The notes: a model not told the origin generated them from the letters alone. Shown: positions 1 through 24,951, counted from the stretch's first letter. The stretch is 64,000 nt of DNA from Escherichia coli (GCF_024700885.2 NZ_CP117016.1), one strand, 5' to 3'. Made by a program: numbers and translations.

Positions 1-1662
1 ATGATACCTGTATGGAGCACAGCCTGCCCGGACTGGGCAGAGCGCCTGAAAAAGGGGCTGTCGATTATTCCGGATCCGATTTATCCGGACGAGGCCGCAC
101 ATGCCCTGGCGATTTTTAAACAACTGCGGATTGTGGATGCACCTGGTAGCCCTACGTTCGGGGAGTCCTGTGCACCGTGGGTGTTTGACCTGGTGGCGGC
201 CCTGTTTGGCTCCTACGATGCGCAGACCGGTGTACGCCATATCAAGGAAGTTTTTATCCTTATCCCCAAGAAAAACTCGAAGTCCACGCTGGCCGCGGGG
301 ATCATGATGACTGCACTGTTACTGAACTGGCGGCAGGCGGCGGGTTACACGATTCTGGCCCCGACTGTGGAGGTGGCGGCCAACGCCTTCAACCCTGCCC
401 GGGATATGGTACGACGTGACGATGATCTGGATGATCTCTGCCAGGTACAGACCCATATCCGGACCATCACCCACCGGGTGACAGACACCACCCTGAAGGT
501 GGTGGCAGCCGATCCGAATACGGTGTCCGGTATCAAGTCCGTGGGTACGCTGATTGATGAGTTGTGGCTGTTTGGCAAGCAGTGCAAGGCGGAGGACATG
601 TTACGTGAAGCCATAGGCGGCCTTGCCTCCCGCCCGGAAGGGTTTGTGGTGTATACGACCACCCAGTCGAATGAACCGCCCGCCGGGGTGTTCAGACAGA
701 AACTGCAGTACGCCCGGGATGTGCGCGACGGCAAAATTCATGATCCGCACTTTCTGCCGGTGATATTTGAACACCCTCCTGAAATGGTGGAAAGCGGGGC
801 TCACCTGCTGATGGAAAACCTCGCCATGGTCAATCCTAATCTCGGCTATTCAGTGGATGAGGCCTTTCTGTACCGGGAGTACCGTAAAGCCCGGGAAGCC
901 GGTGAAGAGACATTCCGGGGGTTCATGTCAAAACACGCCAATGTGGAAATTGGTCTTGCCCTGCGCTCTGACCGCTGGGCGGGGGCTGATTTCTGGGAAG
1001 AGCAGGGCCGTTGTATCAGCCTGGACGATATCCTGCGTCGTGCTGATGTGGTGACGGTGGGGATTGACGGCGGAGGGCTGGATGATCTGCTGGGGATGTA
1101 TGTGATTGGGCGTGACCGGGAGACCCGCGAATGGCTGGGCTGGGGCCATGCCTGGGCGCATGAAACCGCGGTGGTCCGACGGAAGAGCGAGGCGTCCCGG
1201 TTTCAGGATCTTGTTGCCTGTGGAGATATGACCATTGTCCGGCGTGTCGGGGATGACACGGCGGAAGTGGCGGAATATGTGCGTCGCATTCATGAGGCTG
1301 AGTTACTGGACCATATCGGTATTGACCCGTCAGGGGTGGGGCAGATTCTGGATTCACTGGCGGAAGCCGGGATCCCCGACGGAATTGTGGTGGGGATAAG
1401 CCAGGGCTGGAAACTGGGCGGGGCCATTAAAACCACCGAGCGCAAACTGGCTGAAGGGGTGCTGGTGCATGGTGACCAGCCCCTGATGGCCTGGTGTGTC
1501 GGCAATGCCCGGGTGGAGCCTAAAGGTAACGCCATTCTTATCACCAAACAGGCCAGTGGACGGGGAAAAATTGACCCGCTGATGGCGCTGTTCAATGCGG
1601 TCTCCCTGATGTCCCTTAACCCGGAACCGAAAAAGAAAGAATATGCGGTTTTTTTCATATAA
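1..1662 (+). CDS. Phage terminase large subunit (may be 5'-truncated by the window edge)
   Basis: 553-aa ORF in frame from position 1; sequence resembles HK97-family large terminases; sits directly upstream of the head genes. Confidence 0.8.
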   Translation: MIPVWSTACPDWAERLKKGLSIIPDPIYPDEAAHALAIFKQLRIVDAPGSPTFGESCAPWVFDLVAALFGSYDAQTGVRHIKEVFILIPKKNSKSTLAAGIMMTALLLNWRQAAGYTILAPTVEVAANAFNPARDMVRRDDDLDDLCQVQTHIRTITHRVTDTTLKVVAADPNTVSGIKSVGTLIDELWLFGKQCKAEDMLREAIGGLASRPEGFVVYTTTQSNEPPAGVFRQKLQYARDVRDGKIHDPHFLPVIFEHPPEMVESGAHLLMENLAMVNPNLGYSVDEAFLYREYRKAREAGEETFRGFMSKHANVEIGLALRSDRWAGADFWEEQGRCISLDDILRRADVVTVGIDGGGLDDLLGMYVIGRDRETREWLGWGHAWAHETAVVRRKSEASRFQDLVACGDMTIVRRVGDDTAEVAEYVRRIHEAELLDHIGIDPSGVGQILDSLAEAGIPDGIVVGISQGWKLGGAIKTTERKLAEGVLVHGDQPLMAWCVGNARVEPKGNAILITKQASGRGKIDPLMALFNAVSLMSLNPEPKKKEYAVFFI

Positions 1663-1688
1663 CCCTGTTCACACTGTAACCATCACGA

Positions 1689-1710
1689 ACCGCTCCGGCG
1701 GTTTTTTTAT
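1689..1710 (+). terminator. Short hairpin plus T7 tract between terminase and capsid genes (attenuator-like)
   Basis: accgc-tccg-gcggt stem-loop followed by ttttttt; the RBS aggagg and GTG start of the next gene follow. Confidence 0.35.
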
Positions 1711-1725
1711 TTTCAGGAGGCTGAT

Positions 1726-3663
1726 GTGACTCTTAAACGGGCCTGTTCCCTGCTGACGGTGAAATCCTTCAGTGAGGATGAACGAGTGATCACCGGGATT
1801 GCGTCAACGCCTTCTCCGGATCGGGATGGTGACATCCTGGAGCCGGAGGGCGCGGAGTTTGGCAGTGCGATCCCGTTTCTCTGGCAGCATGACCATTCCC
1901 GCCCGGTGGGGCAGTGTACGGTGCGCCGGGTCAGCGAAGGGCTGGAAATCACGGCAACACTGGTGAAGCCCGTACCGGATATGCCGTCGCAACTGGCTGC
2001 CCGGCTGGATGAGGTCTGGGCGGCCATTAAGACCGGGCTGGTCAGGGGGCTGTCCGTGGGCTTCCGTCCCCATGAATACACCTTTCTGGACGGAGGCGGA
2101 CTGCATTTTCTGCGCTGGGAACTGATGGAGGTGTCTGCCGTCACCGTGCCCGCGAATGCGGAATGCACCATCCGGACCATTAAATCTTACGACCGCCCGT
2201 TTTCTGCCGCGTCCGGCAACCGGAAACCGGTGGTGAAAATCGCATCTTCTGCCGGCGCTGCGGCACAGTCAACAACCGTTTTTCATAAGGAAAAGACCAT
2301 AATGAATATTGGCGAACAGATTAAAAGTTTTGAAAACAAGCGTGCAGCGCTGGCAGCCTCCCTTGAGGAGGTCATGACCAAAGCCGCAGAGGAAGGGCGC
2401 ACGCTGGATGTGGAGGAGGAAGAGCATTACGACAACACCGCAGCGGAAATCCGTCAGGTGGATGCGCACCTGAAGCGCCTGCGTGAACTGGAAGCCGGTA
2501 AGGCCGCCACGGCGCAGCCGGTGAAACAGGCCGGTAACGGGAATGTGGCCGCGGTGGCTTCTGCGCCGGTGATCCGTGTGGAGCAGAAACTGGATAAGGG
2601 GATTGGCTTCGCCCGCTTTGCCAAATCGCTGGCTGCGGCTAAAGGCGTCCGATCTGAAGCCCTGGAAGTGGCCCGTCGTCAGTATCCGGATGACAGTCGT
2701 CTGCATCATGTCCTGAAATCGGCAGTGGGCGCGGGGACCACCACGGATCCGCAGTGGGCAGGCAGCCTGTCTGAATATCAGGAATACGCACAGGACTTTA
2801 TTGATTACCTGCGTCCGCAGACCATTATCGGGCGATTTGGTCAGGGCGGGATCCCTGCACTTCGTCAGGTGCCGTTCAATATCCGTGTGCACGCCCAGGT
2901 GTCCGGCGGTGCTGCCGGCTGGGTGGGTGAGGGTAAGGCAAAACCCCTGACGAAGTTTGATTTTGAATCCATCACCTTCAGTCATGCGAAGGTGTCGGCC
3001 ATTGCGGTACTGACGGAAGAATTGATCCGTTTTTCCAGTCCGGCTGCTGATGCACTGGTCCGTAATGCGCTGGCGGAAGCGGTGGTGGCGCGTCTGGATA
3101 CAGACTTTGTGGACCCGAAAAAAGCCGCAGTGGCAGATGTCTCCCCGGCGTCCATCACCCATGATGTGAAGGGCACGGCATCAACCGGTAACCCGGATGC
3201 GGATGCAGAGGCTGCGTTTGGACAGTTTGTGGCAGCAAACCTGCAGCCCACCGGTGCGGTCTGGCTGATGTCCAGCACCAATGCCCTGGCACTGTCCATG
3301 CGTAAAAATGCGCTGGGTCAGAAGGAATACCCGGACATGACCCTGCTGGGTGGCTCCTTCCAGGGGCTGCCGGTGATTGTCTCCCAGTACGTGGGTGACC
3401 AGCTGGTGCTGGTGAATGCCCCGGATATTTATCTGGCGGATGACGGCGGCGTGGCAGTGGATATGTCCCGCGAGGCATCACTGGAAATGCAGTCTGAGCC
3501 GGGCGGCGACAGTACCACGCCGTCCCCGGTGGAGCTGGTTTCCATGTTCCAGACAGGCAGCGTGGCCATCCGTGCGGAGCGCTGGATCAACTGGCGTCGT
3601 CGCCGTACCGCGGCGGTGGCGGTGATCACCGGAGTGAACTACGGCAGTGCGTCCGGCGGCTGA
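1726..3663 (+). CDS. Prohead protease - scaffold - major capsid protein fusion (HK97 family)
   Basis: N-terminal part resembles HK97-type prohead proteases (DRDGDILEP, LWQHD, SVGF, VSAVTVPANAE); after an internal MNIGEQIK and a charged coiled-coil stretch, the C-terminal part resembles HK97-fold capsid proteins. GTG start 6 nt after aggagg. Confidence 0.85.
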   Translation: MTLKRACSLLTVKSFSEDERVITGIASTPSPDRDGDILEPEGAEFGSAIPFLWQHDHSRPVGQCTVRRVSEGLEITATLVKPVPDMPSQLAARLDEVWAAIKTGLVRGLSVGFRPHEYTFLDGGGLHFLRWELMEVSAVTVPANAECTIRTIKSYDRPFSAASGNRKPVVKIASSAGAAAQSTTVFHKEKTIMNIGEQIKSFENKRAALAASLEEVMTKAAEEGRTLDVEEEEHYDNTAAEIRQVDAHLKRLRELEAGKAATAQPVKQAGNGNVAAVASAPVIRVEQKLDKGIGFARFAKSLAAAKGVRSEALEVARRQYPDDSRLHHVLKSAVGAGTTTDPQWAGSLSEYQEYAQDFIDYLRPQTIIGRFGQGGIPALRQVPFNIRVHAQVSGGAAGWVGEGKAKPLTKFDFESITFSHAKVSAIAVLTEELIRFSSPAADALVRNALAEAVVARLDTDFVDPKKAAVADVSPASITHDVKGTASTGNPDADAEAAFGQFVAANLQPTGAVWLMSSTNALALSMRKNALGQKEYPDMTLLGGSFQGLPVIVSQYVGDQLVLVNAPDIYLADDGGVAVDMSREASLEMQSEPGGDSTTPSPVELVSMFQTGSVAIRAERWINWRRRRTAAVAVITGVNYGSASGG

Positions 3664-3707
3664 GTCTGATAAGGAGGACGGGAGGCGTGCGCCTCCCGTA
3701 ACAGGTT

Positions 3708-3929
3708 ATGGCAAAGATCCGATATCTGCAGGGCACGCATGATGCCCGGGCCGGGGATATCCGTGATGTGGCACAGCCGTGTGCGGAGGTGCTGGTTCGC
3801 CTGGGAAAGGCGGAGTACATCACGGTGCGACGTCCGGCAGGTCAGAAAAAGAAACGTGATGCGGAGCATGGCGAATGTGGAACCTTTTACGGCGAACCCG
3901 AAAAAACCAGAAATCAGGACGTGACGTAA
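3708..3929 (+). CDS. Hypothetical small protein (73 aa) between capsid and portal; overlaps the annotated portal start
   Basis: ORF only; follows the cgggaggc-gtgc-gcctcccg hairpin after the capsid gene; no recognisable family; weak RBS. Confidence 0.2.
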   Translation: MAKIRYLQGTHDARAGDIRDVAQPCAEVLVRLGKAEYITVRRPAGQKKKRDAEHGECGTFYGEPEKTRNQDVT

Positions 3930-6460
3930 GAGAGGCGGGCTGGACCAGCCTGTTTCAGGCGGTGGCTGAGCCCTTTTCCGGCGCCTGGCAGCAGGGCGTG
4001 AAAGCCGATCCTGAAGCCGTCCTCTCCTTTCATGCGGTGTTTGCATGTATTTCGCTGATATCCCAGGATATCGCCAAAATGCGGCTGCGTCTTATGCAGA
4101 CGGATGCGCATGGGATACGCAGGGAAACGCGCCGGGGGGATATTGCCCGCCTCTGTCGTCGTCCCAACGCCCAGCAGAACCGCATCCAGTTTTTTGAACT
4201 GTGGCTGAACGCCAAACTGCGTCACGGCAATACGGTGGTGCTGAAAATCCGTAATGCCCGGGGGCAGATCAAAGAACTGCGTATTCTGGACTGGAGCCGG
4301 GTTGAACCTCTGGTGGCGGATGACGGCGAGGTGTTCTACCGCATCACGCCGGACCGGAACTGCGGGATCACGGAGGCGGTGACGGTGCCTGCCCGGGAAG
4401 TGATCCACGACCGGTTTAACTGTTTTTTTCATCCGCTTATAGGATTGCCGCCGGTGTATGCCGCCGGGCTGGCGGCCACGCAGGGGCATCATATTCAGGA
4501 AAATTCGACGTCTTTTTTCAGAAATGGTGGCAGGCCGTCCGGGGTGATTGAGATCCCCGGCAGTATTACGGAAGAAAATGCGAAAAAACTGAAGAGCAAC
4601 TGGGACAGCGGGTATACAGGCGAAAATGCGGGGAAAACGGCCATTCTGAGCAACGGGGCAAAATACAACCCCACGACGTTTTCACCTGTGGATGCGCAGA
4701 CGGTGGAACAACTGAAGATGACCGCTGAAATTGTCTGTTCGGTGTTCCGTGTCCCGGCCTACAAGATTGGCGTGGGACAACCGCCTTCCAGTGACAACGT
4801 GGAGGCGCTGGAGCAGCAGTATTATTCCCAGTGCCTGCAGACGCTGATTGAGTCCATTGAACTGTTACTGGATGAGGCGCTGGAAACGGGGGAAAACGAG
4901 AGTACAGAATTTGATGTCACCACGCTGCTGAGAATGGACAGTGAGCGGCGCATGAAAACGCTGGGGGATGCGGTGAAAAATACGCTTCTCACGCCCAATG
5001 AGGCCCGTAAACGGGAGAACCTGCCGCCCCTGGCCGGCGGTGATGCACTGTATCTTCAGCAGCAGAACTACAGTCTGGAGGCGCTGTCCCGTCGTGATGC
5101 CCGTGAGGATCCGTTCTCGTCTGCCGGGAAAACAGTTTCATCACAGCTGCCTGACGGCGCATCTGACGGTAATAAGGCAATCAGTGAAACAGAGCATGAT
5201 GCGGTGAAAGCGATGTTCAGGGGGGATACTGAGAAAATGACGGAACGGGAACTGTCCATTATTCGTGCACTGGGAGAAGAATTCTCCACAGTGCTGGCGG
5301 ATTTACAGCGCACATTTGAGGGGAAGATGGCCTCGCAGGCACAAGCGTTTGAAGAGAAACTGACTTCCCTGTCGGCGGTATTACAGAAGCATGTGACGGT
5401 GGATGAGGTGCGTCCGGTTCTGCAGGCGATGGTGGATGACGCTGTGGGGGCCATTCCGGTACCGCGTGATGGTCGTGATTATGATCCGGATGTACTGCAG
5501 CAGGCGGTGAATGATGCGGTCGCAAATATTCCGCAGCCGGCGGACGGTAAAAGTCTCACCCCGGATGATGTGCGTCCGATGCTTGAACAGATGGTGAAGG
5601 AGGCTGTAAGCCATATCCCTGTTCCGCGTGATGGTCGTGACTACGATCCGGAAGTACTGCAGAAGGCGGTGAATGATGCGGTCGCAAATATTCCGCAGCC
5701 GGCGGACGGTAAAAGTCTCACCCCGGATGATGTGCGTCCGATGCTTGAACAGATGGTGAAGGAGGCTGTAAGCCATATCCCTGTTCCGCGCGACGGTCGT
5801 GACTATGATCCCGATGTTCTGCAGAAGGCGGTGAATGATGCGGTCGCAAATATTCCGCAGCCGGCAGACGGTAAAAGTCTCACCCCGGATGATGTGCGTC
5901 CGATGCTTGAACAGATGGTGAAGGAGGCGGTAAGCCATATTCATGTTCCGCGTGATGGTCGTGACTACGATCCGGATGTTCTGCAGAAGGCGGTTCTGGA
6001 TGCGGTGAGTGCCCTGCCGGCTCCGCAGGACGGGCGTGATGCCACGGCTCTGGAAATACTCCCCGCCATTGACGATCAAAAATCCTTTCCCCGGGGCACG
6101 TATGCCACACACCAGGGCGGACTCTGGCGGGCGTATGAAAAAACGCACGGGATGCGGGGATGGGAATGCCTGGTTGACGGGGTGGCGGATATTGACGTCA
6201 GCATGACGGGTGAGCGGTTGTTCTCTGTGGTGGTCCGGCAGAGCAGTGGCCAGCGTACGGAAAAAACATTTTCCCTGCCGGTGATGCTCTACCGCGGTGT
6301 GTTCAGAGCCGGTGAAACCTACCACCCCGGCGATACGGTGACGTGGGGGGGCTCGCTGTGGCACTGCAACAGTATGACCGAAGATAAACCCGGAGAAGCT
6401 CATTCATCAGCCTGGACCCTGGCTGCAAAACGTGGGCGGGATGCAGGAGGCGGAAAATGA
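3875..6460 (+). CDS. Portal protein (HK97 family) with about 465-aa C-terminal extension containing tandem repeats
   Basis: Residues about 40-400 align to HK97-type portal motifs (FHAVFACISLISQDIA, RRPNAQQNRIQFFELWLNAKLRHGNTVVL, FFRNGGRPSGVIEIPGSITEENAKKLKSNWDSGYTGENAGKTAILSNGAKYNP, NEARKRENLPPLAGGDALYLQ); the ORF continues uninterrupted for another about 465 codons. Start codon uncertain. Confidence 0.8.
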   Translation: MWNLLRRTRKNQKSGRDVREAGWTSLFQAVAEPFSGAWQQGVKADPEAVLSFHAVFACISLISQDIAKMRLRLMQTDAHGIRRETRRGDIARLCRRPNAQQNRIQFFELWLNAKLRHGNTVVLKIRNARGQIKELRILDWSRVEPLVADDGEVFYRITPDRNCGITEAVTVPAREVIHDRFNCFFHPLIGLPPVYAAGLAATQGHHIQENSTSFFRNGGRPSGVIEIPGSITEENAKKLKSNWDSGYTGENAGKTAILSNGAKYNPTTFSPVDAQTVEQLKMTAEIVCSVFRVPAYKIGVGQPPSSDNVEALEQQYYSQCLQTLIESIELLLDEALETGENESTEFDVTTLLRMDSERRMKTLGDAVKNTLLTPNEARKRENLPPLAGGDALYLQQQNYSLEALSRRDAREDPFSSAGKTVSSQLPDGASDGNKAISETEHDAVKAMFRGDTEKMTERELSIIRALGEEFSTVLADLQRTFEGKMASQAQAFEEKLTSLSAVLQKHVTVDEVRPVLQAMVDDAVGAIPVPRDGRDYDPDVLQQAVNDAVANIPQPADGKSLTPDDVRPMLEQMVKEAVSHIPVPRDGRDYDPEVLQKAVNDAVANIPQPADGKSLTPDDVRPMLEQMVKEAVSHIPVPRDGRDYDPDVLQKAVNDAVANIPQPADGKSLTPDDVRPMLEQMVKEAVSHIHVPRDGRDYDPDVLQKAVLDAVSALPAPQDGRDATALEILPAIDDQKSFPRGTYATHQGGLWRAYEKTHGMRGWECLVDGVADIDVSMTGERLFSVVVRQSSGQRTEKTFSLPVMLYRGVFRAGETYHPGDTVTWGGSLWHCNSMTEDKPGEAHSSAWTLAAKRGRDAGGGK
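5399..6046 (+). repeat. In-frame tandem repeat array, period 162 bp (54 aa), about 4 copies, inside the portal gene 3' extension
   Basis: Unit ccggatgatgtgcgtccgatgcttgaacagatggtgaaggaggc... recurs at 5561, 5723 and 5885 with near-identity; a diverged copy precedes and a partial copy follows. Confidence 0.9.
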
Positions 6461-6783
6461 CGGCATTACTGACACTGGAAGAGATCAAGGCACATCTGCG
6501 TGTCGACCATGACGCGGATGATGACATGCTGATGGACAAGGTTTGTCAGGCTACCGCCGTGCTGCTGGCCTACATTCAGGGCAGCCGGGATAAAGTGATC
6601 CGTGAGGACGGTGAACTGATCCCGGGCGAGGCATTAACCCGGATGAAGGGGGCTGCCATGCGACTGACCGGGATGCTGTACCGGAATCCGGATCTTGCGG
6701 AGCGGGAAGAACTGCTTCAGGGGGAGCTGCCGTTTTCTGTTTCCGTGCTGATTTACGATTTGCGTTGTCCGACGGTGTTATGA
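6457..6783 (+). CDS. Head-tail connector protein (gp6-like)
   Basis: 108-aa ORF, ATG overlapping the portal stop (ATGA); N-terminus TLEEIKAHLRVDHDADDDML typical of gp6-like connector proteins. Confidence 0.65.
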   Translation: MTALLTLEEIKAHLRVDHDADDDMLMDKVCQATAVLLAYIQGSRDKVIREDGELIPGEALTRMKGAAMRLTGMLYRNPDLAEREELLQGELPFSVSVLIYDLRCPTVL

Positions 6784-6792
6784 GGAGGGGGA

Positions 6793-7143
6793 ATGGCAAT
6801 ATCTGCAGGTCGTCTGACACAGATGATAAGTGTTCTGAATCCGGTGTTAACCCGTAACGCTGCCGGAGAAATGACGGAAGAATGGGTGTCATGCGGGAAA
6901 ATTCATGCGGATATCCGTGGCAGGAGCAGCCGGGAGCGGATGCAGTCCGGTGCGGAAATGGCGCAGGCGGAAATCCGCATCTGGGTGCGCGGTCAGTCCG
7001 GTCGGGAAATCACGGCAGCGTCACGACTTCATGTGCTGAGTGGTCCATGGCGTGACCGGATCCTGAACGTTGTCGGGCTGCCCGTGCCGGATGCGACCGG
7101 CGGGCGTCTGGAAATTCTCTGTCGGCTGGGAGGGGAAAAATGA
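6793..7143 (+). CDS. Head closure / head-tail adaptor protein
   Basis: 116-aa ORF with RBS gaggagg; position and size fit a head-tail joining protein. Confidence 0.55.
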   Translation: MAISAGRLTQMISVLNPVLTRNAAGEMTEEWVSCGKIHADIRGRSSRERMQSGAEMAQAEIRIWVRGQSGREITAASRLHVLSGPWRDRILNVVGLPVPDATGGRLEILCRLGGEK

Positions 7144-7586
7144 TCGAAACCCTGCTGGATTTTTCGGGGCTGGAGGACATCAGCCGCGATTTGCAGCTTC
7201 TGAGTGGTGCGGAAAATAACCGGGTGCTGCGTGAGGCAACCCGTGCGGGTGCGAATGTGCTGAAAGAAGAAGTGGTGTCACGGGCACCGGTACGCAGGGG
7301 AAAACTGCGCCGCAATGTGGTGATCCTTTCCCGGCGCTCCCGCGATGGCGGGATGGAATCCGGTGTCCATATCCGTGGTGTTAATCCGGACACCGGTAAC
7401 AGCGATAACACTATGAAGGCGGATAACCCGCGCAATGCTTTCTACTGGCGGTTTGTGGAAATGGGGACTGTGAATATGCCACCGCACCCGTTTGTGCGCC
7501 CGGCGTTTGATGTGCGCAGTGAACAGGCAGCTCAGGTGGCGATTGCGCGGATGAACCGGGCCATTGATGAGGTACTGAGACGATGA
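7140..7586 (+). CDS. Tail component protein (HK97 gp10-like)
   Basis: 148-aa ORF translationally coupled (ATGA overlap); position in the morphogenesis module. Confidence 0.55.
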   Translation: MIETLLDFSGLEDISRDLQLLSGAENNRVLREATRAGANVLKEEVVSRAPVRRGKLRRNVVILSRRSRDGGMESGVHIRGVNPDTGNSDNTMKADNPRNAFYWRFVEMGTVNMPPHPFVRPAFDVRSEQAAQVAIARMNRAIDEVLRR

Positions 7587-7927
7587 CGGAGGCGGATTTG
7601 TATCCTCATCTGGCGCATCTTGCCGGCGGGCAGGTGTACCCGTATGTGGTCCCCCTGCTGGATGGCAGGCCGTCGGTGGCGCTTCCGTGGGTGGTTTTCA
7701 GCCTGATTTCATCGGTGTCAGCGGACGTGATGGGCGGGCAGGCGGAGTCCTCAGTGTCGGTGCAGATAGACGTTTATGCCGGGACTGTGACGCAGGCGCG
7801 TCAGATACGTCAGGACGCCCGTGAAGCCATAATGCTGCTGGCCCCGGGATCCGTCAGTGAAATGCAGGACTATATTCCGGAAAACCGCTGTTACCGTGCA
7901 ACCCTGGAGTTTCAGGTCACGGTGTGA
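7583..7927 (+). CDS. Tail completion / tail terminator-like protein
   Basis: 114-aa ORF coupled to the upstream gene, immediately before the major tail gene. Confidence 0.5.
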   Translation: MTEADLYPHLAHLAGGQVYPYVVPLLDGRPSVALPWVVFSLISSVSADVMGGQAESSVSVQIDVYAGTVTQARQIRQDAREAIMLLAPGSVSEMQDYIPENRCYRATLEFQVTV

Positions 7928-7953
7928 CTTTTTCTTTTTTCTACAAAACCATA

Positions 7954-7976
7954 CCCCGCCGCGTGCGGGTTTTTTA
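7954..7976 (+). terminator. Hairpin plus T tract upstream of the major tail gene
   Basis: cccgc-cgcgt-gcggg followed by tttttt; caggagg RBS and ATG 7992 follow. Confidence 0.35.
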
Positions 7977-7991
7977 TTATCAGGAGGCAGA

Positions 7992-8708
7992 ATGTCTGCT
8001 TTGTATGAACGCTCACAGCTGACGCAGGTGATGATTTCATCTGCCCCGGCGACTGCTGAAACTATGGATAAGGCGGAATATCTGCGCCTGGATTGCACCA
8101 TCAAGGAAGTCCAGTTCACCGCCGGTCAGAAACAGGATATTGATGTGACCACGCTCTGCTCCACCGAGCAGGAGAACATCAACGGTCTGGGGGCGTCGTC
8201 TGAGATTTCCATGTCGGGTAATTTTTATCTGAATCAGGCCCAGAACGCCCTGCGTGATGCCTATGACAATGACGCGTTGTATGCGTTTAAGGTGCTGTTT
8301 CCGTCCGGTAAGGGCTTTAAGTTCCTGGCGGAAGTGCGTCAGCACACCTGGTCATCCGGTACCAACGGCGTGGTGGCAGCAACGTTTTCACTGCGTATGA
8401 AAGGCAAACCGGTGTCCTTTGTGGTACCGCTGGCGTTTGTGAAAAATCTGGATAAAACACTTACCGTGAATACAGGTGCGCTGCTGACAATGTCAGTCAG
8501 TGCCAACGGGGGAACGCCGCCGTATAAATACGCCTGGAAGAAGGATGGTCAGCCGGTTGACGGGCAGACGACAGACACCTTCAGTAAGCCAGGTGCGCAG
8601 TCCGCTGATGCGGGGAAATATACCTGCGTGGTGACCGATTCGGCAGAGAAAGCACAGAGTGTGACGTCTGTTGAATGCACCGTGACAGTGAGCGCAGCCG
8701 CCGGATAA
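7992..8708 (+). CDS. Major tail protein (lambda gpV-like) with C-terminal Ig-like domain
   Basis: ATG 7992 preceded by aggagg; C-terminal about 80 aa look like a bacterial Ig-like domain (TVNTGALLTMSVSANGGTPPYKYAWKKDGQPV...GKYTCVVTD), as in lambda gpV. Confidence 0.8.
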   Translation: MSALYERSQLTQVMISSAPATAETMDKAEYLRLDCTIKEVQFTAGQKQDIDVTTLCSTEQENINGLGASSEISMSGNFYLNQAQNALRDAYDNDALYAFKVLFPSGKGFKFLAEVRQHTWSSGTNGVVAATFSLRMKGKPVSFVVPLAFVKNLDKTLTVNTGALLTMSVSANGGTPPYKYAWKKDGQPVDGQTTDTFSKPGAQSADAGKYTCVVTDSAEKAQSVTSVECTVTVSAAAG

Positions 8709-8722
8709 GGGGATGGGTCATC

Positions 8723-9097
8723 ATGAAAAAGGATCTGAAAACGCTGGCGCTGGCCAGACTGTCAGGGTTTCGTCATAAAACGGTGAAGGTGCCGGAATGG
8801 GGTAATGTCAGCGTGGTGCTGCGGGAGCCTTCGGCAGAGGCCTGGTATCTGTGGCAGGAAGTGCTCAATGGTGATGGAGAGGATGACGATACCCTGTCGG
8901 TGGTGGCGAAAACCCGCCGTAACCTGGAAGCGGATGTGACGCTGTTCTGCGATGTCCTGTGTGATACGGATCTGCAGCGGGTGTTCGCTCCGGACGACCG
9001 TGAGCAGGTGCTGGCCGTCTATGGTCCGGTACATGCCCGGTTGCTGCGTCAGGCACTGGAACTGATCGCTGATGCAGAGTCGGCCAGAAAAAAGTAG
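8723..9097 (+). CDS. Tail assembly chaperone (lambda gpG-like)
   Basis: 124-aa acidic ORF immediately before the tape-measure gene; ends at TAG 9095-9097 just after the slippery heptamer. Confidence 0.8.
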   Translation: MKKDLKTLALARLSGFRHKTVKVPEWGNVSVVLREPSAEAWYLWQEVLNGDGEDDDTLSVVAKTRRNLEADVTLFCDVLCDTDLQRVFAPDDREQVLAVYGPVHARLLRQALELIADAESARKK

Positions 9098-9402
9098 CCC
9101 GCCCGGAAATTCGCTTTCTGATGCGACTTGCGCTCCGTCTGGGGCGCACCTTATCCGAACTGCGGCACAGCCTGAGTGTGAGCGAGGCGATGATGTGGAT
9201 GGAGTTCGACAGGGTATCCCCGCTGGGTGATGAGCGCGGGGATATCCGTAATGCACAGATCGTGAAAGCGGTTTTTGGGGCACAGGGGATGAATGTTGCA
9301 CTGAAGGACGCCATGCTCTGCTGGGGCGAGGATGAGGATAAGCCGGAGGTGGATCCGTTTGCGGCGCTGGAAGACGCGCTGAGCTTTGCAGCACAGTCAT
9401 GA
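8723..9402 (+). CDS. Tail assembly chaperone G-T fusion (made by -1 frameshift at 9088-9094)
   Basis: G-frame ORF plus contiguous -1 frame ORF; conserved G/GT arrangement upstream of tape-measure genes in long-tailed phages. Confidence 0.7.
9088..9094 (+). promoter_or_regulatory. Programmed -1 ribosomal frameshift site (A AAA AAG) generating the G-T fusion
   Basis: Heptamer A_AAA_AAG in the G zero frame 1 nt before the G stop; the -1 frame is open from 9094 to the TGA at 9400-9402 (ORF-track ORF 9121..9402). Confidence 0.75.
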
Positions 9403-9410
9403 ATGATGAG

Positions 9411-9431
9411 AACCGCTGAGGCGGTTTTTTT
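9411..9431 (+). terminator. Hairpin plus T tract between GT and the tape-measure gene
   Basis: aaccgc-tgag-gcggtt followed by ttttttt. Confidence 0.35.
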
Positions 9432-9449
9432 ACGCCCGGAGAAAGGTGA

Positions 9450-12400
9450 ATGGCGACGTTACGTGAACTGATTATCAAAATTTCGGCAAATTCGCAGTCA
9501 TTCCAGTCGGAGATCCAGCGGGCTTCCCGCATGGGCAGTGAATATTACCGGACCCTGCAGAATGGCGGGCGTCAGGCTGCCGCAGTCGCCCGGGAGCAGC
9601 GACGCGCCCTGGCTGAGCTGAACAGCCAGTTGACGGAAATCCGCGCTTCAGCTGCCGGAACGGCGGGGGCATTTGCAGGTGCCTTTGCCACCGGACACCT
9701 GATTTCTCTGGCCGATGAATGGAGTTCCGTGAATGCCCGACTGAAACAGGCGTCGCAGTCATCCGATGAATTTTCGTCATCACAGAAAGTGCTGATGGAT
9801 ATCAGCCAGCGGACGGGCACGGCATTTTCAGATAATGCGGCCCTGTTTGCCCGCTCGGCAGCCTCAATGCGTGAATATGGTTACAGTGCTGATGATGTGC
9901 TGAAGGTGACGGAGGCCATTTCCACGGGGCTGAAAATCTCCGGTGCCAGTACGGCAGAGGCGGGCTCGGTGATCACCCAGTTCAGCCAGGCGCTGGCACA
10001 GGGTGTGTTACGCGGTGAGGAATTTAATTCGGTCAATGAAAGCGGAGACCGGATCGTACGTGCACTGGCTGCGGGTATGGGCGTGGCCCGTAAAGACCTT
10101 AAGGCGATGGCGGACGACGGCAAACTGACGGCGGATAAAGTCGTTCCTGCGTTAATCAGCCAGCTGGGGGTATTGCGTGATGAATATGCCGCCATGCCGG
10201 AAACGGTCTCTGACGGGATCACAAAGGTGGAAAACGCCTTTATGGCCTGGGTGGGTGGCGCGAATGAAGCCAGCGGAGCGACGAAAACGCTCTCCGGCGT
10301 GCTGAACGGTGTTGCCGGTAATATTGATAATGTGGCAACAGCCGCGGGGGCGCTGGTTGCCGTCGGGGTTGCCCGGTACTTTGGCAATATGGCCTCCGGA
10401 GCGGTGTCTGCCACGGCAGGACTTGTGACGGCAGCACGTAATGAAGTGGCACTGGCGGAAGCACAGCTCAGGGGGACGCAGATTGCCACGGCGCGGGCAA
10501 GGGCAGCCGTGTACCGTGCACAGCAGGCTGTGGCGGCAGCCCGCGGGACGGAGATGCAGATTGCTGCAGAAGCCCGTCTGGCGGCCACACAGGAACGCCT
10601 GAACAGAAATATTGCTGCCAGAACCGCAGCCCAGAATGCGCTGAACAGTACAACGGCGGTGGGCTCACGTCTGATGACTGGTGCGTTGGGACTGGTTGGT
10701 GGCGTACCCGGACTGGTGATGCTGGGGGCAGCAGCATGGTATACGCTGTACCAGAATCAGGAGCAGGCCAGGGAGTCAGCGCGCCAGTATGCACTGACGA
10801 TAGATGAAATCGCGCATAAAACGCCGTCAATGTCTTTGCCTGAAGCCTCAGATAATGAAGGACGAACACGGGCGGCGCTGGCAGAGCAGAACCGGCTGAT
10901 TGATGAACAGGCCAGCCGGGTGAAATCCCTGCAGGAAAAAATCGCTGGATATCAGTATGTTCTGGCTAACCCTGGCTGGACAACCGGTGACGGATTCATG
11001 ATAAACCATCTGACATCGGTGAAGACCGTGACGGAAGGGCTTTCTCAGGCAACAGAGCAGCTTGCCGTTGAGCAGTCCCGTCTGGCACAGATGCAGGAAA
11101 AAGCGCAGTCCATTCAGGATGTGCTTGCCGGGCTGGAAGACCGTCGTGTGGCGTTAATTCGTCAGCAGGCGGCAGAGCAGAATAAGGTGTACCAGTCCAT
11201 GCTGGTTATGAACGGTCAGCATACGGAATTCAACCGTCTGCTGGGGCTGGGTAATGAACTGCTTCAGCAGCGGCAGGGACTGGTGAATGTGCCGTTACGG
11301 CTGCCACAGGCCACTCTGGATGATAAACAGCAGAGTGCCCTGACAAAAACAGAGCGTGAGCTGGCCCTGTCCAGACTGAAAGGGGAAGAAAAAGAGCGTG
11401 TCCGACTGGGGTATGCGGCGGATGACCTCGGTTTTGTGGGTGAACCGTATCAGGAGGCGAGACAACGTTATATCAGTAATGCCCTGGAAGCCTGGCGCAA
11501 TAACGAGGCGAATAAACCCAAATCCCGGGGTGGAAAATCAGAGACGGAAAAAGCGGAAGACAGTTTTTCCCGGCTGCTGAAGCAGCAGAAAGAGCAATTG
11601 GCACTTGCGGGGCAGAATACAGAGCTGGCGAAGCTGAAATACCAGACTGCGCAGGGCGAACTGAAAACCCTGACGGAGATGCAGAAGCAGGAACTGCTGC
11701 GCAATGCGGCCCTGATTGACCAGCAAAAAATCCGGGAGCAGTTGCGGTCCCGGGAAGAGACCCTGAAGAATGATAATGTGGCTGCGCGTGCATCAAATGA
11801 AGCGGAACTGCTGGGGTACGGGCAGGGAGAGCGGCTCCGTGAACGCATGCGGGAGTTGCAGCAGATCCGCGACAGTTTCCGCCAGAAGGATGCGGACCTT
11901 CAGTCTCAGTATCAGACCGGGGATATCAGTGAGGATTTTTACAGACAGGCTCTGGCACAGAACGCGCAGTATCTGAGTGAACGTCTGAAAGAGCAGGAAG
12001 CCTTTTATGCCGAATCGGATGTGCAGCGTGCGGACTGGCAGAAAGGGCTGCAGGAGGGATTCAGTAACTGGGTGGATAATGCGTCCGATTACGCCTCACA
12101 GGCAGCACAGCTGGCGACGGAGGGTATCTCAGGGATGGTGAATAACATCACGGAGATGCTGAACGGAAATAAAGTGGAATGGCGCAGCTGGGCCTCATCA
12201 GTGCTGCAGGAAATATCAAAAGTTCTTATGAATGCCGCGATTGTCAACGGGATCAAGACGGCGGCAAACAGTATGTCCGGAGCGGGAGGATTTATCGGCA
12301 GTATTGGTAGCTGGCTGGGCGGTGCGGTGGCCAATGCAAAAGGCGGGGTGTATACCTCGGCAAACCTGAGTGCGTACAGCAACAGTATTGTGGATACGCC

Positions 12401-19690: not shown

Positions 19691-22516
19691 ATGACAGTAA
19701 AAATTTCTGGCGTGCTTAAAGATGGCACAGGAAAACCAGTACAGAACTGCACCATTGTGCTGAAGGCCAGACGAACCAGCAGCACGGTGGTGGTGAACAC
19801 GGTGGCCTCTGAAAATCCGGATGAAGCCGGACGTTACAGCATGGATGTTGAGCATGGTCAGTACAGCGTCACCCTGCTGGTTGAAGGTTTTCCGCCTTCA
19901 CATGCCGGGACCATTACCGTCTATGAAGGTTCCAGACCAGGTACGCTGAATGATTTTCTCGGTGCCATGACGGAGGATGATGTCCGACCGGAGGCACTGC
20001 GCCGCTTTGAGCAGATGGTGGAAGAGGTGTCACGTAACGCCTCCGCGGTTGCACAGAATACGGCAGCCGCGAAAAAATCAGCCAGCGATGCCAGTGCATC
20101 AGCCAGCGAGGCGGCAACTCATGCAACCGATGCTGCAGCCTCAGCACGTGCCGCCAGCACGTCAGCCGGACAGGCCGCGTCGTCGGCTCAGTCAGCGTCT
20201 TCCAGCGCAGGAACGGCATCGACAAAGGCCCGTGAAGCAGCAAAAAGTGCTGCTGCTGCAGAGTCATCAAAAAGCGCGGCAGCTACCAGCGCCAGTGCCG
20301 CGAAAACGTCAGAAACGAATGCCGCAGCATCACAAAAATCGGCAGCCACTTCTGCATCCACAGCGACCACGAAGGCGTCAGAAGCTGCCACCTCGGCACG
20401 GGGTGCGGCGGCCTCAAAAGAGGCAGCGAAATCATCAGAAACGAACGCATCATCAAGCGCCAGTAGTGCCGCTTCCTCGGCAACGGCGGCAGGCAATTCC
20501 GCGAAGGCGGCAAAGACGTCTGAGACAAACGCCAGGTCTTCTGAAACGGCAGCGGGACAGAGCGCCTCGGCTGCGGCAGGCTCAAAAACAGCGGCTGCGT
20601 CGTCTGCCAGTGCCGCGTCAACAAGTGCCGGGCAGGCCTCAGCCAGTGCCACCGCCGCCGGAAAATCGGCAGAAAGCGCCGCATCATCCGCTTCAACAGC
20701 CACAACGAAGGCTGGCAAAGCCACTGAGCAAGCCACTGCAGCAGCGAGGTCTGCTTCTGCAGCAAAAACCTCTGAAACAAATGCAAAGACTTCAGCAGAC
20801 AATGCTGCTTCCTCTAAGGCGGCAGCCGCATCGTCAGCCAGTTCAGCGGCGTCATCGGCATCATCTGCGTCTGCTTCAAAAGATGAGGCGACCAGACAAG
20901 CGTCAGCAGCGAAAGGTAGTGCCACGACAGCAACAATGAAAGCATCAGAGGCAGCTGGTAGTGTGACGGCGGCAGCTCAGAGCAAAAGTACGGCGGAATC
21001 CGCGGCAACGCGCGCCGAGACAGCAGCAAAACGGGCAGAGGATATTGCATCCGCCGTGGCGCTGGAGGATGCGAGCACGACGAAAAAGGGGATAGTACAG
21101 CTCAGCAGTGCGACCAACAGCACTTCCGAGTCACTGGCGGCAACGCCAAAAGCGGTTAAGGCGGTAATGGGTGAAACGAACAAGAAAGCGCCCTTAAATA
21201 GTCCTGCACTGACCGGAACGCCAACAACACCAACTGCGCGACAGGGAACGAATAATACCCAAATCGCAAGCACGGCTTATGTTATGGCTGCGATCGCTGC
21301 CCTCGTGGACTCGTCGCCTGACGCACTGAATACGCTGAACGAGCTGGCTGCGGCGTTGGGCAACGACCCGAATTTTGCGACCACCATGACTAACGCGCTT
21401 GCGGGTAAGCAACCGAAAGATGCCACCCTGACGGCGCTGGCCGGGCTTGCTACTGCGGCAGACAGGTTTCCGTATTTTACGGGGAATGATGTTGCCAGTC
21501 TGGCAACCCTGACAAAAGTTGGGCGGGATATTCTTGCGAAATCGACCGTTGCCGCCGTTATCGAATACCTCGGTTTACGAGAACTCGGCACAAGCGGGGA
21601 GAAAATACCGTTACTCAGTACAGCGAATACCTGGACTAATCGACAAACATTCAGCGGTGGCCTTTCTGGTGAACTATCCGGCAATGCTTCTACAGCTGCA
21701 AAATTAAAAACTGCCAGGAAAATAAGCAATGTGGCTTTTGATGGTTCCTCCGATATCACATTAAAAGCAAGTCATGTTGGTGCGTTTGCCTTAGGGAAAA
21801 CAGGAAGCACCGTTGCGAATGATAAAGCAGTTGGATGGAACTGGAGTAGCGGAGCCTATAACGCAACTATTAGTGGTGCATCAACGTTAATTATTCATTT
21901 TTATATGGGAGAAGGAAGTTGTCCTGCAGCTCAGTTTCGGATTAATTATAAAAATGGCGGTGTTTTTTATCGTTCAGCCCGTGATGGTTATGGTTTTGAA
22001 GCCGACTGGTCCGAATTTTACACCACCACCAGAAAACCTTCAGCAGGAGATGTTGGTGCACTGCCGTTATCTGGTGGTCAACTGAATGGTACACTGGGTA
22101 TCGGAACATCCAGTGCTCTTGGCGGTAATTCGATTGTATTGGGTGATAATGACACGGGCTTTAAACAAAATGGCGATGGTAATCTGGATGTTTATGCTAA
22201 TAACGTCCATGTTATGCGCTTTGTCTCCGGAAGCATTCAAAGTAATAAAACCATAAATATTACAGGGCGTGTTAACCCCTCGGATTACGGTAACTTTGAT
22301 TCCCGTTATGTGAAAGATGTTCGACTTGGTTCACAGCAATATTATGGAGTGAACAACTGGCAAACATGGTATTTCCGGTGCCCTTCAGGTCATGTATTGT
22401 CTGGTATTAATGTTCAGGATACAGGGTCTAACTCTGCCGATAATATAGCGGGCGTTTATTACAGACCCGTTCAGAAGTATATAAATGGCACCTGGTATAA
22501 TGTAGCGAGCGTTTAA
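19691..22516 (+). CDS. stf: Side tail fibre protein Stf (constant N-terminal part plus current variable C-terminal part)
   Basis: N-terminus [28 protein letters not shown]...[20 protein letters not shown] closely resembles lambda Stf; long Ala/Ser/Thr-rich region; the left crossover site lies inside the gene. Confidence 0.9.
21558..21583 (+). promoter_or_regulatory. Left recombination crossover site (gix/pix-like 26-mer) for a Gin/Pin-family invertase
   Basis: TTATCGAATACCTCGGTTTACGAGAA; 22 of 26 positions match the reverse complement of the right site; the inverted-repeat similarity extends to about 40 bp. Confidence 0.7.
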
Positions 22517-22517
22517 T

Positions 22518-23051
22518 ATGATGCACTTAAAGAACATAAAAGCGGGTAATGCTAAAACACTGGAACAGTATGAGTTAACAAAGAAACACGGAGTTATCTG
22601 GCTTTACTCTGAGGACGAAAAAAACTGGTATGAGGAAGTGAAAAACTTTCAGCCAGACACCATAAAGATTGTTTACGATGAAAATAATATTATTGTTGCC
22701 ATAACCAAAGATGCCTCCACACTTAACCCTGAAGGTTATAGCGTCGTTGAGATTCCTGATATTACCGCCAACCGGCGTGCTGACGACTCAGGTAAATGGA
22801 TGTTTAAAGATGGCGCAGTCATTAAACGTGTATATACCGAAGAAGAGTTGCGCCTACAGACGGAAAACCAGAAAAAAATATTATTACAGCAGGCCAGAGA
22901 AAAAACGCAGTTCTGGCAAACACAGCTTACTTTGGGGATTATCACTGATTCAGACAGACAGCAACTGATGAACTGGATGCGATACGTGCAAAAGGTTGAG
23001 ACAACTGATACCTCGGTTCTTCCTGTAACATTCCCGGAACCACCAGAATAA
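22518..23051 (+). CDS. tfa: Tail fibre assembly protein Tfa (current orientation)
   Basis: 177-aa ORF starting 1 nt after the stf stop; Tfa-like sequence. Confidence 0.85.
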
Positions 23052-23081
23052 GAAAAGGCCCGTACGGGCCTTAATTTGTTG

Positions 23082-23609
23082 TTATTCTGGTTTCTGTGGC
23101 CATTCAGGCTTTGCAGTATCCACACGGCTGACCATAACGCTGTAGCGTTCCCATGATTCCAGTCGTGTGCGTTCCTCATCAGTTGCCATATTCAGTCTGA
23201 CAGCACGTTCCAGCGGTTGAATCACAGACTCCGCTTCGGAAAGCAAAGCGGCTTTTTGTAACTCTGCCTGCTGTTGCAGTTCCTGTTTTGTATATTCCCG
23301 CTTTACTACTTTACCATCCAGAAACTTCCAGTTTCCCGAGATATCGGCGCGACGGTTGGCTGTTATATTCGGTAACTCAACAACACTTAACCCGTCAGGG
23401 TTAAGTGTTGATACGTCTTTCTCAATACAACGAATAATCCCCTTCTGGTCATAAGCTATTTTTAAAGTATCATCCTGAAAGTTTTTTAATTCGTCATACC
23501 AGTTTTTACCGTCTTCTGTATATAGCCAGATAACGCCAGCTTTTTTCGTAAGCTGATACTGCTCAATGGTTTTGGGGTTTCCGGCGGTAATATTTTTCAG
23601 ATGTTGCAT
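23082..23609 (-). CDS. Alternative tail fibre assembly protein (Tfa') in the invertible segment
   Basis: 175-aa ORF convergent with tfa and paralogous to it ([30 protein letters not shown] vs [30 protein letters not shown]); a shared hairpin aaggcccgtacgggcctt lies between them. Confidence 0.8.
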
Positions 23610-23624
23610 ATATTCTCCTGATGG

Positions 23625-24593
23625 CTATGCCTGTTCAACGTTATACCAGTTACCAGAAATGTATTTTTGTAGTGGTCGTGACACCATCCAGTCATCTCCA
23701 TCAACCTCACCAATAATTTGCAATCCTGTTGTCACATGACCATTACCTGGTTCGCAAAGTCCTCCGCGATATAATGTGTCAGAACGTCTGCCTCCCAGAC
23801 GCACATTTCTGATAAAAGAACTATTCAGGTAATCATTTAAGTTTGAACCCCAGCACCCACCAAATATATTTCCATCGGTGTTATAACGGACGCCACCCGC
23901 AATAAGAGCACCCGGTGAAATAAAGGATTTATCGTTCGGGTTAAACTGCCATAAAGCATCATTACCGCCATCGCCACGCATATGAATACATGGAACCGGA
24001 AATCCATACTGTTCTGTCAGTAAATACCCAAAGCTGACCGCGCCGGGATAGCCCTGTCCATTGCGAATGGACAAGCCCTTAACTATCGGCACGTAATGAC
24101 CACCAGGAGTGGGATTCCAGGCAAACTGCGTCTGAACAAAAGGCGCGGTGGCATTATTCAACTGGTCTGCAAATGCGCCACTTCCATCAGGAATTATTCC
24201 CTGATGAATATATGCAACCCGCTTATAAAAATCAGCAGATGCGGGTTGAAGTCCAAATGCCAGTTGTCCATTTGAATAGAATAAAAGGACACCGTCGCCG
24301 CCCTGTTTAATACCAGTGTCGTTATCTCCGAGAGTAATGGAATTACCGCCCAGTGCGTTATCTGTACCAAGCGCCAGCCCACCATCAATTTTGGCCCCGT
24401 GGCTGACAGATATAGCACCTGTTCTCAGATTTATAGCGAATGGCCTTAATGGGCCTATATCACCGTTTTCGCCTTGTCCTTCAGCCGTCGGAATGAAATG
24501 AAGAAAATCTTCTGAACGACGGAAAATAAGACCGAAGGCATCATTGAAAATTCGCAGCGCATTCACCGTGCCAATTTTCAGTTCTCCGGTCAT
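23625..24593 (-). CDS. Alternative Stf C-terminal (receptor-binding) cassette, silent in this orientation
   Basis: 322-aa minus-strand ORF whose C-terminus (LQKYISGNWYNVEQA) parallels the current Stf C-terminus ([15 protein letters not shown]); reads in frame into the right crossover site. Confidence 0.75.
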   Translation of the reverse strand: MTGELKIGTVNALRIFNDAFGLIFRRSEDFLHFIPTAEGQGENGDIGPLRPFAINLRTGAISVSHGAKIDGGLALGTDNALGGNSITLGDNDTGIKQGGDGVLLFYSNGQLAFGLQPASADFYKRVAYIHQGIIPDGSGAFADQLNNATAPFVQTQFAWNPTPGGHYVPIVKGLSIRNGQGYPGAVSFGYLLTEQYGFPVPCIHMRGDGGNDALWQFNPNDKSFISPGALIAGGVRYNTDGNIFGGCWGSNLNDYLNSSFIRNVRLGGRRSDTLYRGGLCEPGNGHVTTGLQIIGEVDGDDWMVSRPLQKYISGNWYNVEQA

Positions 24594-24638
24594 TTTATCG
24601 CCGGAACGCTGAACGGCGTTACCAGCCTTGTTTACCGT

Positions 24639-24664
24639 TTCCTGTAAACCGAGGTTTTAGATAA
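24639..24664 (+). promoter_or_regulatory. Right recombination crossover site (gix/pix-like)
   Basis: TTCCTGTAAACCGAGGTTTTAGATAA, one base off the Gin/Pin/Cin crossover-site consensus as I remember it; the invertase remnant lies immediately downstream. Confidence 0.8.
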
Positions 24665-24718
24665 TGGCGGTTTCTGGCCTGTATGGCATGATTTGTGCTT
24701 TTGGACGGGAGATTCAGC

Positions 24719-24901: not shown

Positions 24902-24951
24902 AAACTGGACTGACTGGTTCACTGTATGCGGCATCTTGTCGTGCTGGTGGT

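Follow-up and report, generated by a model that had tools for sequence, protein, structure and literature searches.

We consider it very likely that positions 1 to 22516 of the 64,000-nucleotide (nt) stretch of Escherichia coli DNA analysed here (NZ_CP117016.1; "the window") are the late (virion) operon of a lambdoid prophage that is inserted in ompW and built from three blocks. As judged by sequence comparison, the mosaic consists of a head module like that of Pseudomonas phage PAJU2, a neck and tail shaft like those of HK97, and a tail tip like that of lambda. An initial annotation of this DNA had described a two-part mosaic of HK97-type head and lambda-type tail; the mosaicism itself stands, but a BLAST comparison of the whole module shows three blocks. 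All coordinates below are window positions unless another genome is named, and the genes of the virion module lie on the forward strand (+).

A virion module of three blocks

Every virion protein was compared by BLAST with lambda, HK97, and five relatives (PAJU2, FUB47a, Mcat2, and the metagenome loci L009 and L010). The head block extends from the terminase large subunit (TerL) to the head–tail adaptor Ad1; its identity to HK97 is just 23–29%, with no HK97 match at all for the capsid part and Ad1, while its protease-capsid, portal, and Ad1 proteins are 28–53% identical to those of PAJU2, Mcat2, vB_FUB47a, and the two metagenome contigs. The HK97-like block comprises the head closure protein, a gp10-like protein, the tail terminator, the major tail protein, G, T, and the tape measure with 43–74% identity to HK97 and no match to lambda except for 26% identity over the last third of the tape measure. 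From M to stf, the proteins are 42–86% identical to those of lambda and 32–36% to those of HK97. The paper describing phage phi330 notes similarity to lambda for M, L, K, I, and J only (PMC12502783).

Each reference phage resembles the prophage in one part and differs in others. With HK97 it shares the protein families of protease, capsid, and portal as well as the neck, shaft, chaperones, and tape measure, but portal, protease, and capsid of HK97 are encoded by three separate genes, no fibre-like gene stands behind the HK97 portal, and the tail tip of the prophage is lambda-like. With lambda it shares M, L, K, I, J, lom, and the N-terminus of stf in collinear order, whereas the lambda head genes B, C/Nu3, D, and E and the tail genes V, G, and T are undetectably related by BLAST, the lambda protease belongs to family S49, and lambda gpH has only 853 amino acids (aa). 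The necks and tails of PAJU2, FUB47a, Mcat2, L009, L010, and a further metagenome locus, L013, are in turn unrelated to those of this module.

The tail from V to stf had been called lambda-like and collinear with lambda, and it is indeed collinear throughout, a layout that HK97 also shows; lambda ancestry, however, applies from M to stf, while V, G, T, and H are HK97-like (53–68% identity). Within the shaft, V, G, and T have no BLAST match in lambda and H has one over aa 733–1080 only (26% identity), in contrast to the tip proteins M, L, K, I, and J, which are homologous to and collinear with their lambda counterparts at 48–86% identity.

Head gene order is a lineage trait

As the initial annotation had pointed out, the portal gene lies downstream of the protease-capsid open reading frame (ORF), whereas HK97 and lambda have the portal first. 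The order here is protease-capsid, a small ORF of 73 aa (orf73), and portal, compared to portal, protease, and capsid in HK97, which is the usual order but typical rather than defining. Our initial expectation that the portal and capsid had been swapped in that annotation was ruled out by Pfam, PHROGs, and NCBIfam. Profile searches with the same three databases placed an S78 protease, an HK97 capsid, and an HK97 portal above their cut-offs, with matches too strong to be put down to chance, confirming a head of the HK97 family, and they kept both the product of 1726–3663 and the N-terminus of the 3875–6460 product in the families to which they had been assigned.

The order TerL, protease, capsid, small ORF(s), portal, and adaptor recurs in six distant loci, namely the phages PAJU2 (Pseudomonas), vB_FUB47a (Burkholderia), and Mcat2 (Moraxella) and the metagenome loci L009, L010, and L013. 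Because it is conserved in such distant phages, the position of the portal after the capsid is an old trait of this lineage and not a local rearrangement. In vB_FUB47a and Mcat2, protease and capsid are encoded by two neighbouring genes, whereas PAJU2, L009, L010, and L013 have them fused, as they are here; the protease-capsid proteins of PAJU2, FUB47a, Mcat2, L009, and L010 are 36–48% identical to the E. coli one by BLAST, and that of L013 reaches 62% by alignment. A homologue of the fibre-like gene stands alone behind the portal gene of PAJU2, L009, and L010, is fused to the portal in L013 (1237 aa), and is absent from FUB47a and Mcat2. The head block would derive from an HK97-family lineage with the native order TerL, protease, capsid, small ORF, portal, fibre-like protein, and adaptor.

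One reading frame for protease and capsid

The ORF at 1726..3663 (+, 645 aa) encodes an S78 prohead protease (~aa 20–160), a linker, delta-like helices (from aa 193), and an HK97-fold capsid protein. The initial annotation had placed protease, scaffold-like segment, and capsid in this one ORF, and a single frame with both domain profiles above cut-off bears it out: Peptidase_S78 (PF04586) matches aa 48–152 with 34.7 bits (cut-off 21) and Phage_capsid (PF05065) aa 386–635 with 52.7 bits (cut-off 24.2). In addition, TIGR01554 (major_cap_HK97) matches aa 204–584 with 78.3 bits (cut-off 27.5) and phrog_617 covers the full length of the ORF (3e-261), while the stricter equivalog TIGR01543 stays under its cut-off for the protease part (46.4 vs. 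59). Two residues that are invariant in five fused homologues, H55 and S110, may correspond to the catalytic residues of HK97 gp4. Over its full length the protein is 48% identical to PAJU2 ORF003, for which the depositors note "prohead protease fused capsid protein" and "structural protein". The scaffold-like, delta-domain-like segment (aa 195–262; 2308..2511, +) appears as two long helices at aa 195–222 and 229–262, predicted by AlphaFold with a per-residue confidence (pLDDT) of 64–85 inside an otherwise failed model, and the TIGR01554 match begins within it at aa 204.

Conservation within this ORF suggests that it also yields a capsid chain without the protease, which would start at Met193. 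In an alignment of fused and split forms, the Met193 column is invariant in an otherwise variable linker and coincides with the capsid-gene start codon of the split relatives. The proposed start of this 453-aa delta-plus-capsid protein (2286..2304, +) consists of a TAAGGA motif at 2286–2291 and the in-frame ATG at 2302–2304. The spacing of TAAGGA is 10 nt in E. coli and 8 nt in L013; in PAJU2, L009, and L010, AGGAGG stands 8–9 nt upstream of the junction Met, which is the sole internal in-frame ATG with such a site in these three. An in-frame internal start with a predicted ribosome-binding site is therefore conserved among the relatives, similar to lambda C/Nu3, which are annotated as nested genes and resemble the long and short products proposed here from one frame.

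Read in this way, the one ORF would give two chains, a long one with protease, delta, and capsid and a 453-aa one with delta and capsid only, the latter in greater abundance. The two would co-assemble on the portal with the protease and delta parts pointing inward. The protease, brought into the shell by the long chain, would then remove the delta part and itself, by analogy with HK97.

Alternatively, the ORF may have a single product, with no internal initiation and with each subunit cleaving off its own protease, as is generally assumed for the fusions of small actinobacteriophages. Single-ORF fusions of protease and capsid have been described as common in small-genome siphoviruses (PMC9671004), and a capsid-protease fusion is a routine annotation in small actinobacteriophages, a likeness at the level of annotation. 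NCBIfam NF045541 (prohead protease/major capsid fusion protein) also matches the ORF partially, and the E. coli Shine-Dalgarno motif is modest, with 4-nt matches at four other internal ATGs. A single product would, however, leave aside the invariance of the junction Met in a variable linker at precisely the capsid start of the split relatives, as well as the perfect AGGAGG at 8–9 nt that forms the sole strong internal site in three fused relatives, and we regard it as rather doubtful.

A homopolymer joins the portal to the next gene

The 861-aa "portal" encoded at 3875–6460 is a 454-aa portal and a 407-aa fibre-like gene joined by a change from G5 to G6. Phage_portal (PF04860) matches aa 54–382 of this ORF (272.6 bits, 6e-81), TIGR01537 (portal_HK97) scores 349 bits (cut-off 112), and the ORF aligns with the solved 424-aa HK97 portal 8cez over aa 45–401 (E 4e-20). 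Identity to the portals of PAJU2, FUB47a, Mcat2, L009, and L010 is 39–53%, and the last ~430–440 residues have no portal similarity. On the strength of the profiles and the solved HK97 portal, the HK97-family portal proper is placed at 3875..5239 (+); with five Gs in the tract it would be 454 aa long, and this G5 translation ends in ...AMFRGILRK followed by the stop.

The poly-G tract lies at 5220..5225 (+), and DNA alignment shows that its extra G joins the portal frame to the next gene. The tract is G6 in the window and in phage 2851 and G5 in JLK-2012 and PPyecE_EH1910, where the portal is annotated from 3875/3887 to 5239 and the 407-aa gene from 5236, with an ATGA stop/start overlap; the poly-G run is the only relevant difference between the fused and the split alleles. 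An exact G6 61-mer was found in 746 E. coli records and an exact G5 60-mer in 213, some genomes having both, and G6 is also present in the genome records of the phages 2851, YYZ-2008, and WGPS6. The split state appears to be ancestral, because the outgroups PAJU2 (ORF006/ORF007), L009, and L010 have separate portal and fibre-like genes. An independent portal fusion of 1237 aa was found in two metagenome samples, L013 being among these loci. A conserved programmed frameshift at the portal/fibre junction was also considered and is unsupported, given that the junctions of the relatives differ (a 4-nt overlap, a 17-nt overlap, and a 14-nt gap).

Recurrent fusion to the portal C-terminus suggests that the fibre-like protein is associated with the portal. 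One could go further and see the tract at 5220–5225 as a switch between two forms of the virion, with G5 giving a portal plus a free fibre-like protein with CBM5/12-like domains and G6 giving the two covalently joined, but we hold this to be speculative and unlikely.

In the record of phage phi330 (PV189401), the stretch 3875–8872 contains frame breaks in the portal, fibre-like, gp10-like, and major tail genes, including a 2-nt CT insertion at ~5151. These breaks are probably sequencing errors.

The gene behind the portal encodes a fibre-like protein

The fibre-like part runs from Met455 of the fused product (5237..6460, +; 407 aa) and belongs to phrog_1289. It is 29% identical to the stand-alone PAJU2 ORF007 (E 1e-26), and a stand-alone gene follows the portal in PAJU2, L009, L010, JLK-2012, and PPyecE_EH1910. 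A search among representative proteins gave 5577 relatives at E<=1e-3, most of which stand alone and are 250–550 aa long. A search of 5.8 billion proteins with this extension of the portal as the query returned near-identical E. coli fragments only. The idea that the longer members of the family are portal fusions was dismissed, since 10 of 11 long representatives lack a portal domain and merely have more repeats. The label "portal protein" of PHROG 1289 probably arose by transfer from fused genes like the 861-aa ORF. Many relatives of the portal extension (window 5165–6457) carry the precomputed Pfam assignment PF28083.1.

AlphaFold, run with an 80-row alignment, predicts a long helix with confidence, ~6–8 helix-loop repeats with the motif IPxPxDG, and, with very high confidence, a C-terminal all-beta domain. 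The helix-loop repeats are encoded by a tandem DNA repeat at 5462..5994 (+) with a period of 162 nt, 3.3 copies, and 95% matches, and the IPxPxDG motif occurs 6 times here, 7 times in phage 2851, JLK-2012, and PPyecE_EH1910, and 9 times in phi330. The all-beta domain (6062..6439, +; pLDDT 95–98) is predicted to be a tandem CBM5/12-like domain of the chitin-binding type: Foldseek matched it to the chitin-binding domains 2rts and 2d49 at root-mean-square deviations of 1.8–2.0 Å over 46–47 residues (probability 1.00), and further to the CBM domains of ChiB and COD, to viral collagen-like fibre proteins, and to a tail fibre of Agrobacterium phage 7-7-1 (9rkv). The Pfam profile CBM_5_12 stays below its cut-off of 26.2 bits in this protein (19.1 bits), exceeds it in the relative P0123 (29.8 bits), and reaches 22–25 bits in others. 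The modelled fold thus suggests a glycan-binding fibre, a clue that conflicts with the portal association suggested by the fusions.

How far the head can be read as a working scheme

Several points speak against the way in which we read the two head ORFs. The AlphaFold model of the 645-aa fusion, built from a 5-row alignment, failed (pLDDT 41.5) and was not used for fold searches, so that the domain borders rest on the profile matches. The case for internal initiation at Met193 is one of sequence conservation only, and the Shine-Dalgarno motif of E. coli (TAAGGA at 10-nt spacing) is weaker than those of the distant relatives. A fibre-like fold argues for an external location, which fits poorly with a protein attached to the C-terminus of the portal; in solved HK97-type portals, this C-terminus is inside the capsid. 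The record of phi330 cannot show the portal allele of a viable phage because of its many frame breaks, and the fused G6 allele could be no more than a tolerated defect.

On another reading, the fused frames would be decay or sequencing artefacts of a defective prophage, and the G6 fusion of portal and fibre would be a functionless frameshift lesion. The change does sit in a homopolymer, which is prone to mutation as well as to sequencing error, the outgroups have separate genes, a portal domain is present in just 2 of the 150 best-scoring representatives, and the lambdoid prophages of E. coli O157 are often defective (PMC2669165). Set against this, the exact G6 haplotype is found in 746 complete-genome records, more than for G5, and recurs in the genome records of three phages; the 1237-aa portal fusion arose independently; and PAJU2 shares the protease-capsid fusion, the product being annotated as a structural protein. 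On balance we find a mere lesion unlikely.

Tail shaft, tail tip, and tail length

The HK97 character of the tail shaft is evident from its major tail protein onwards. The gene for this protein (V) lies at 7992..8708 (+) and encodes 238 aa with a C-terminal immunoglobulin-like domain and 66–68% identity to HK97 gp12; there was no BLAST match to lambda V, and Phage_TTP_11 scored under its cut-off (23.8 vs. 28.4). An ORF start at 7857 is over-extended, as the match to HK97 gp12 begins at aa 46 of the long ORF, and both the NCBI annotation pipeline PGAP and the record of phage 2851 give the shorter gene. The tail assembly chaperones G (8723–9097, +; Phage_TAC_1) and T (frame 9121–9402, +; Phage_tail_T) are 63% and 60% identical to HK97 gp13 and gp14, respectively. 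A predicted −1 slippery site, AAAAAAG at 9088–9094, stands just before the stop codon of G, and the −1 frame continues without a stop into the Phage_tail_T ORF, as expected at the sequence level of a putative G/GT chaperone pair made by −1 frameshifting. The tape measure (H; 9450..12692, +; 1080 aa) is of the HK97 type, with matches to Phage_HK97_TLTM, TMP_3, and Tape_meas_lam_C, and is 53% identical to HK97 gp16 (1089 aa) over its full length, compared to 26% to lambda H over the C-terminal third only (aa 733–1080).

All genes of the tail tip are on the forward strand. M (12685–13026) is 48% identical to its lambda counterpart, L (13026–13724) 77%, K (13735–14478) 67–86%, I (14475–15056) 67%, J (15399–18872) 68%, and lom (18940–19539) 42%, while stf (19691–22516) has 78% identity in its N-terminus; the starts of K and I follow PGAP. 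Phage 2851 and phi330 have genes for an Arc-like repressor and an Ant antirepressor between L and K (L001, 29725–31391; L004, 13888–15554), and in this prophage L and K are nearly adjacent (13724–13735).

The initial annotation had noted that the tape measure is about 27% longer than lambda gpH, and the figure is correct, as lambda H (10542–13103 of lambda) has 853 aa and the ratio is 1.27. However, lambda gpH is the wrong comparator because the HK97-type tape measure itself has 1089 aa; tail length would be set by a ruler of the HK97 type and not by a lengthened gpH. The lambda tail tube consists of 32 rings of 42 Å, that is 134 nm, plus the tip (PMC10721106), and simple scaling from lambda would give a tube of ~170 nm for 1080 aa. 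The tail of phi330 (genus Pankowvirus), whose tape measure also has 1080 aa, is ~145 nm long (PMC12502783), and that of a lambdoid particle from O157 Sakai, for which the prophage of origin is uncertain, measures 147 nm (PMC2669165). These two rough negative-stain values, obtained without a lambda control, are the only published figures that we found for this type of module, and we found no figure for the measured tail length of HK97 in the literature. A tail about 27% longer than that of lambda, as predicted earlier, is unsupported by these values yet not firmly refuted. The heads of the two particles are an elongated one of 44 × 95 nm for Sakai (PMC2669165) and an isometric one of ~55 nm for phi330 (PMC12502783), and the lambdoid prophages of Sakai carry morphogenetic genes very similar to one another (PMC2669165).

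Taken as a whole, the earlier picture is one of two parts, with an obligatory fusion of protease, scaffold, and capsid, a portal that has moved in this phage, and a lengthened lambda ruler that makes the tail ~27% longer. Its domain calls, gene order, collinearity of the tail genes with lambda, and tape-measure ratio (1080/853) are all correct, and a Tape_meas_lam_C domain is indeed present at aa 862–933 of the tape measure. Nevertheless, V, G, and T have no lambda match and H has one over its last third only, with all four being 53–68% identical to HK97; the head gene order is conserved in distant phages; the tape measure of HK97 is of the same size class at 1089 aa; and the published tails of ~145 and 147 nm compare to a lambda tube of 134 nm plus tip. 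This picture is accordingly improbable, and we prefer the three-block build.

Remaining genes of the head and neck

The window begins exactly at the ATG of TerL (1..1662, +; 553 aa), which was identified by TerL_ATPase, TerL_nuclease, and phrog_9 and is 50–57% identical to the proteins of Mcat2 and L009, its sole good matches, and 23% to that of HK97. A putative terminator-like hairpin with a T-run, found by a consensus scan, occupies the gap before the protease-capsid gene (1687..1704, +). Directly after the capsid stop, a GC-rich hairpin without a T-run can be read from the sequence (3678..3699, +); it may act in attenuation or in stabilising the RNA at the step from the high-copy capsid gene to the low-copy portal gene. 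The small ORF orf73 (3708..3929, +; 73 aa, phrog_829) overlaps the start of the portal gene by 55 nt. Every relative examined has an ORF of 53–77 aa at the same position between the capsid and portal genes, and tblastn detected no sequence similarity among these position-equivalent ORFs.

Behind the fibre-like gene lies the head–tail adaptor Ad1 (6457..6783, +; Phage_connect_1), which belongs with the head module: it is 28–31% identical to the proteins of PAJU2, Mcat2, L009, and L010 and has no BLAST match to HK97 gp6. The HK97-like block then begins with the head closure protein Hc1 (6793–7143, +; 43–44% identity to its HK97 counterpart), the gp10-like protein (7140–7586, +; 74%), and the tail terminator (7583–7927, +; 48–49%). 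Between the tail terminator gene and the major tail gene lies another putative terminator-like hairpin with a T-run (7955–7969). Putative terminators of a comparable kind also stand between late genes of HK97.

Prophage end, genomic locus, and prevalence

Downstream of stf, a forward tfa gene (22517–23050, +) is followed by an inverted fibre-tip gene plus tfa (23081–23608 and 23624–24592, −), a 61-aa recombinase fragment (24719–24901), and a gene for a methyltransferase dependent on S-adenosylmethionine (25100–25768, −). The region 22517–25768 looks like a decayed invertible fibre segment. Parts of it are 97% identical to P2-like Yersinia phages.

The right end of the prophage is a truncated ompW (26683–26808), followed by yciE, yciF, yciG, and trpABCDE (region 26683–35096); the truncation implies that the prophage occupies the ompW site, near yciEFG and trpABCDE. 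Positions 40000–64000 of the window are 100% identical to the chromosome of E. coli strain MLI114 (RefSeq), in which the adjacent prophage genes have lengths and coordinates equal to those of the window ORFs. A host other than E. coli had been considered, given that chromosomal parts matched fragments from a phage collection at just ~80%, and was dismissed on the strength of this identity. For MLI114, PGAP labels the two head ORFs "phage major capsid protein" and "phage portal protein" and 1–1662 "terminase large subunit". The prophage carries no stx genes in this strain.

The module is already known, sequenced, annotated, and very common in E. coli, as is clear from near-identical annotated phages and from its presence in about one-fifth of complete E. 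coli genomes. Bases 1–9450 are 95–99.7% identical to 94 phage records, including phage 2851 (genus Pankowvirus), YYZ-2008, BP-4795, 1717, the WGPS series, and many Stx1a, Stx2c, and Stx2a phages, and some of these records carry the annotation "major head protein/prohead protease". Of 5426 complete E. coli genomes, 1006 contain the junction region of portal and fibre, and a single genome can have as many as seven copies. Phage 2851 and the other long-tailed Stx phages (YYZ-2008, BP-4795, 1717, WGPS) share the whole 9.45-kb block of head, neck, and tail shaft with the same ORFs at the same offsets, and the annotations of 2851-type phages run in the order terminase, major head protein/prohead protease, portal, adaptors, tail proteins, and tape measure. 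This prophage differs from them by the absence of stx, its ompW site, another stf end, and the lack of the Arc/Ant insert between L and K.

Implications

With the module present in dozens of Stx phage records and about one-fifth of complete E. coli genomes, the mosaic as first described matters little in itself. The useful corrections are that the label "portal" on the 861-aa product hides a second gene and that the tail shaft should not be measured against lambda. Novelty, if there is any, is confined to the proposed nested start of the capsid protein and to the fusion, through the G tract, of the portal with a member of a large uncharacterised family of fibre-like proteins, both of them side results, albeit in a medically relevant group of phages. 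On the unlikely reading of the G tract as a switch, and if the fusion is functional, the phrog_1289 family with its >5000 representative clusters would consist of proteins associated with the portal crown rather than of ordinary external fibres; such a protein might end up packaged within the head, or the prohead protease might release it. A head of this kind, with a nested start for protease and capsid in addition, would, if true, constitute a distinct, widespread, and experimentally unstudied scheme for the assembly of HK97-type heads.

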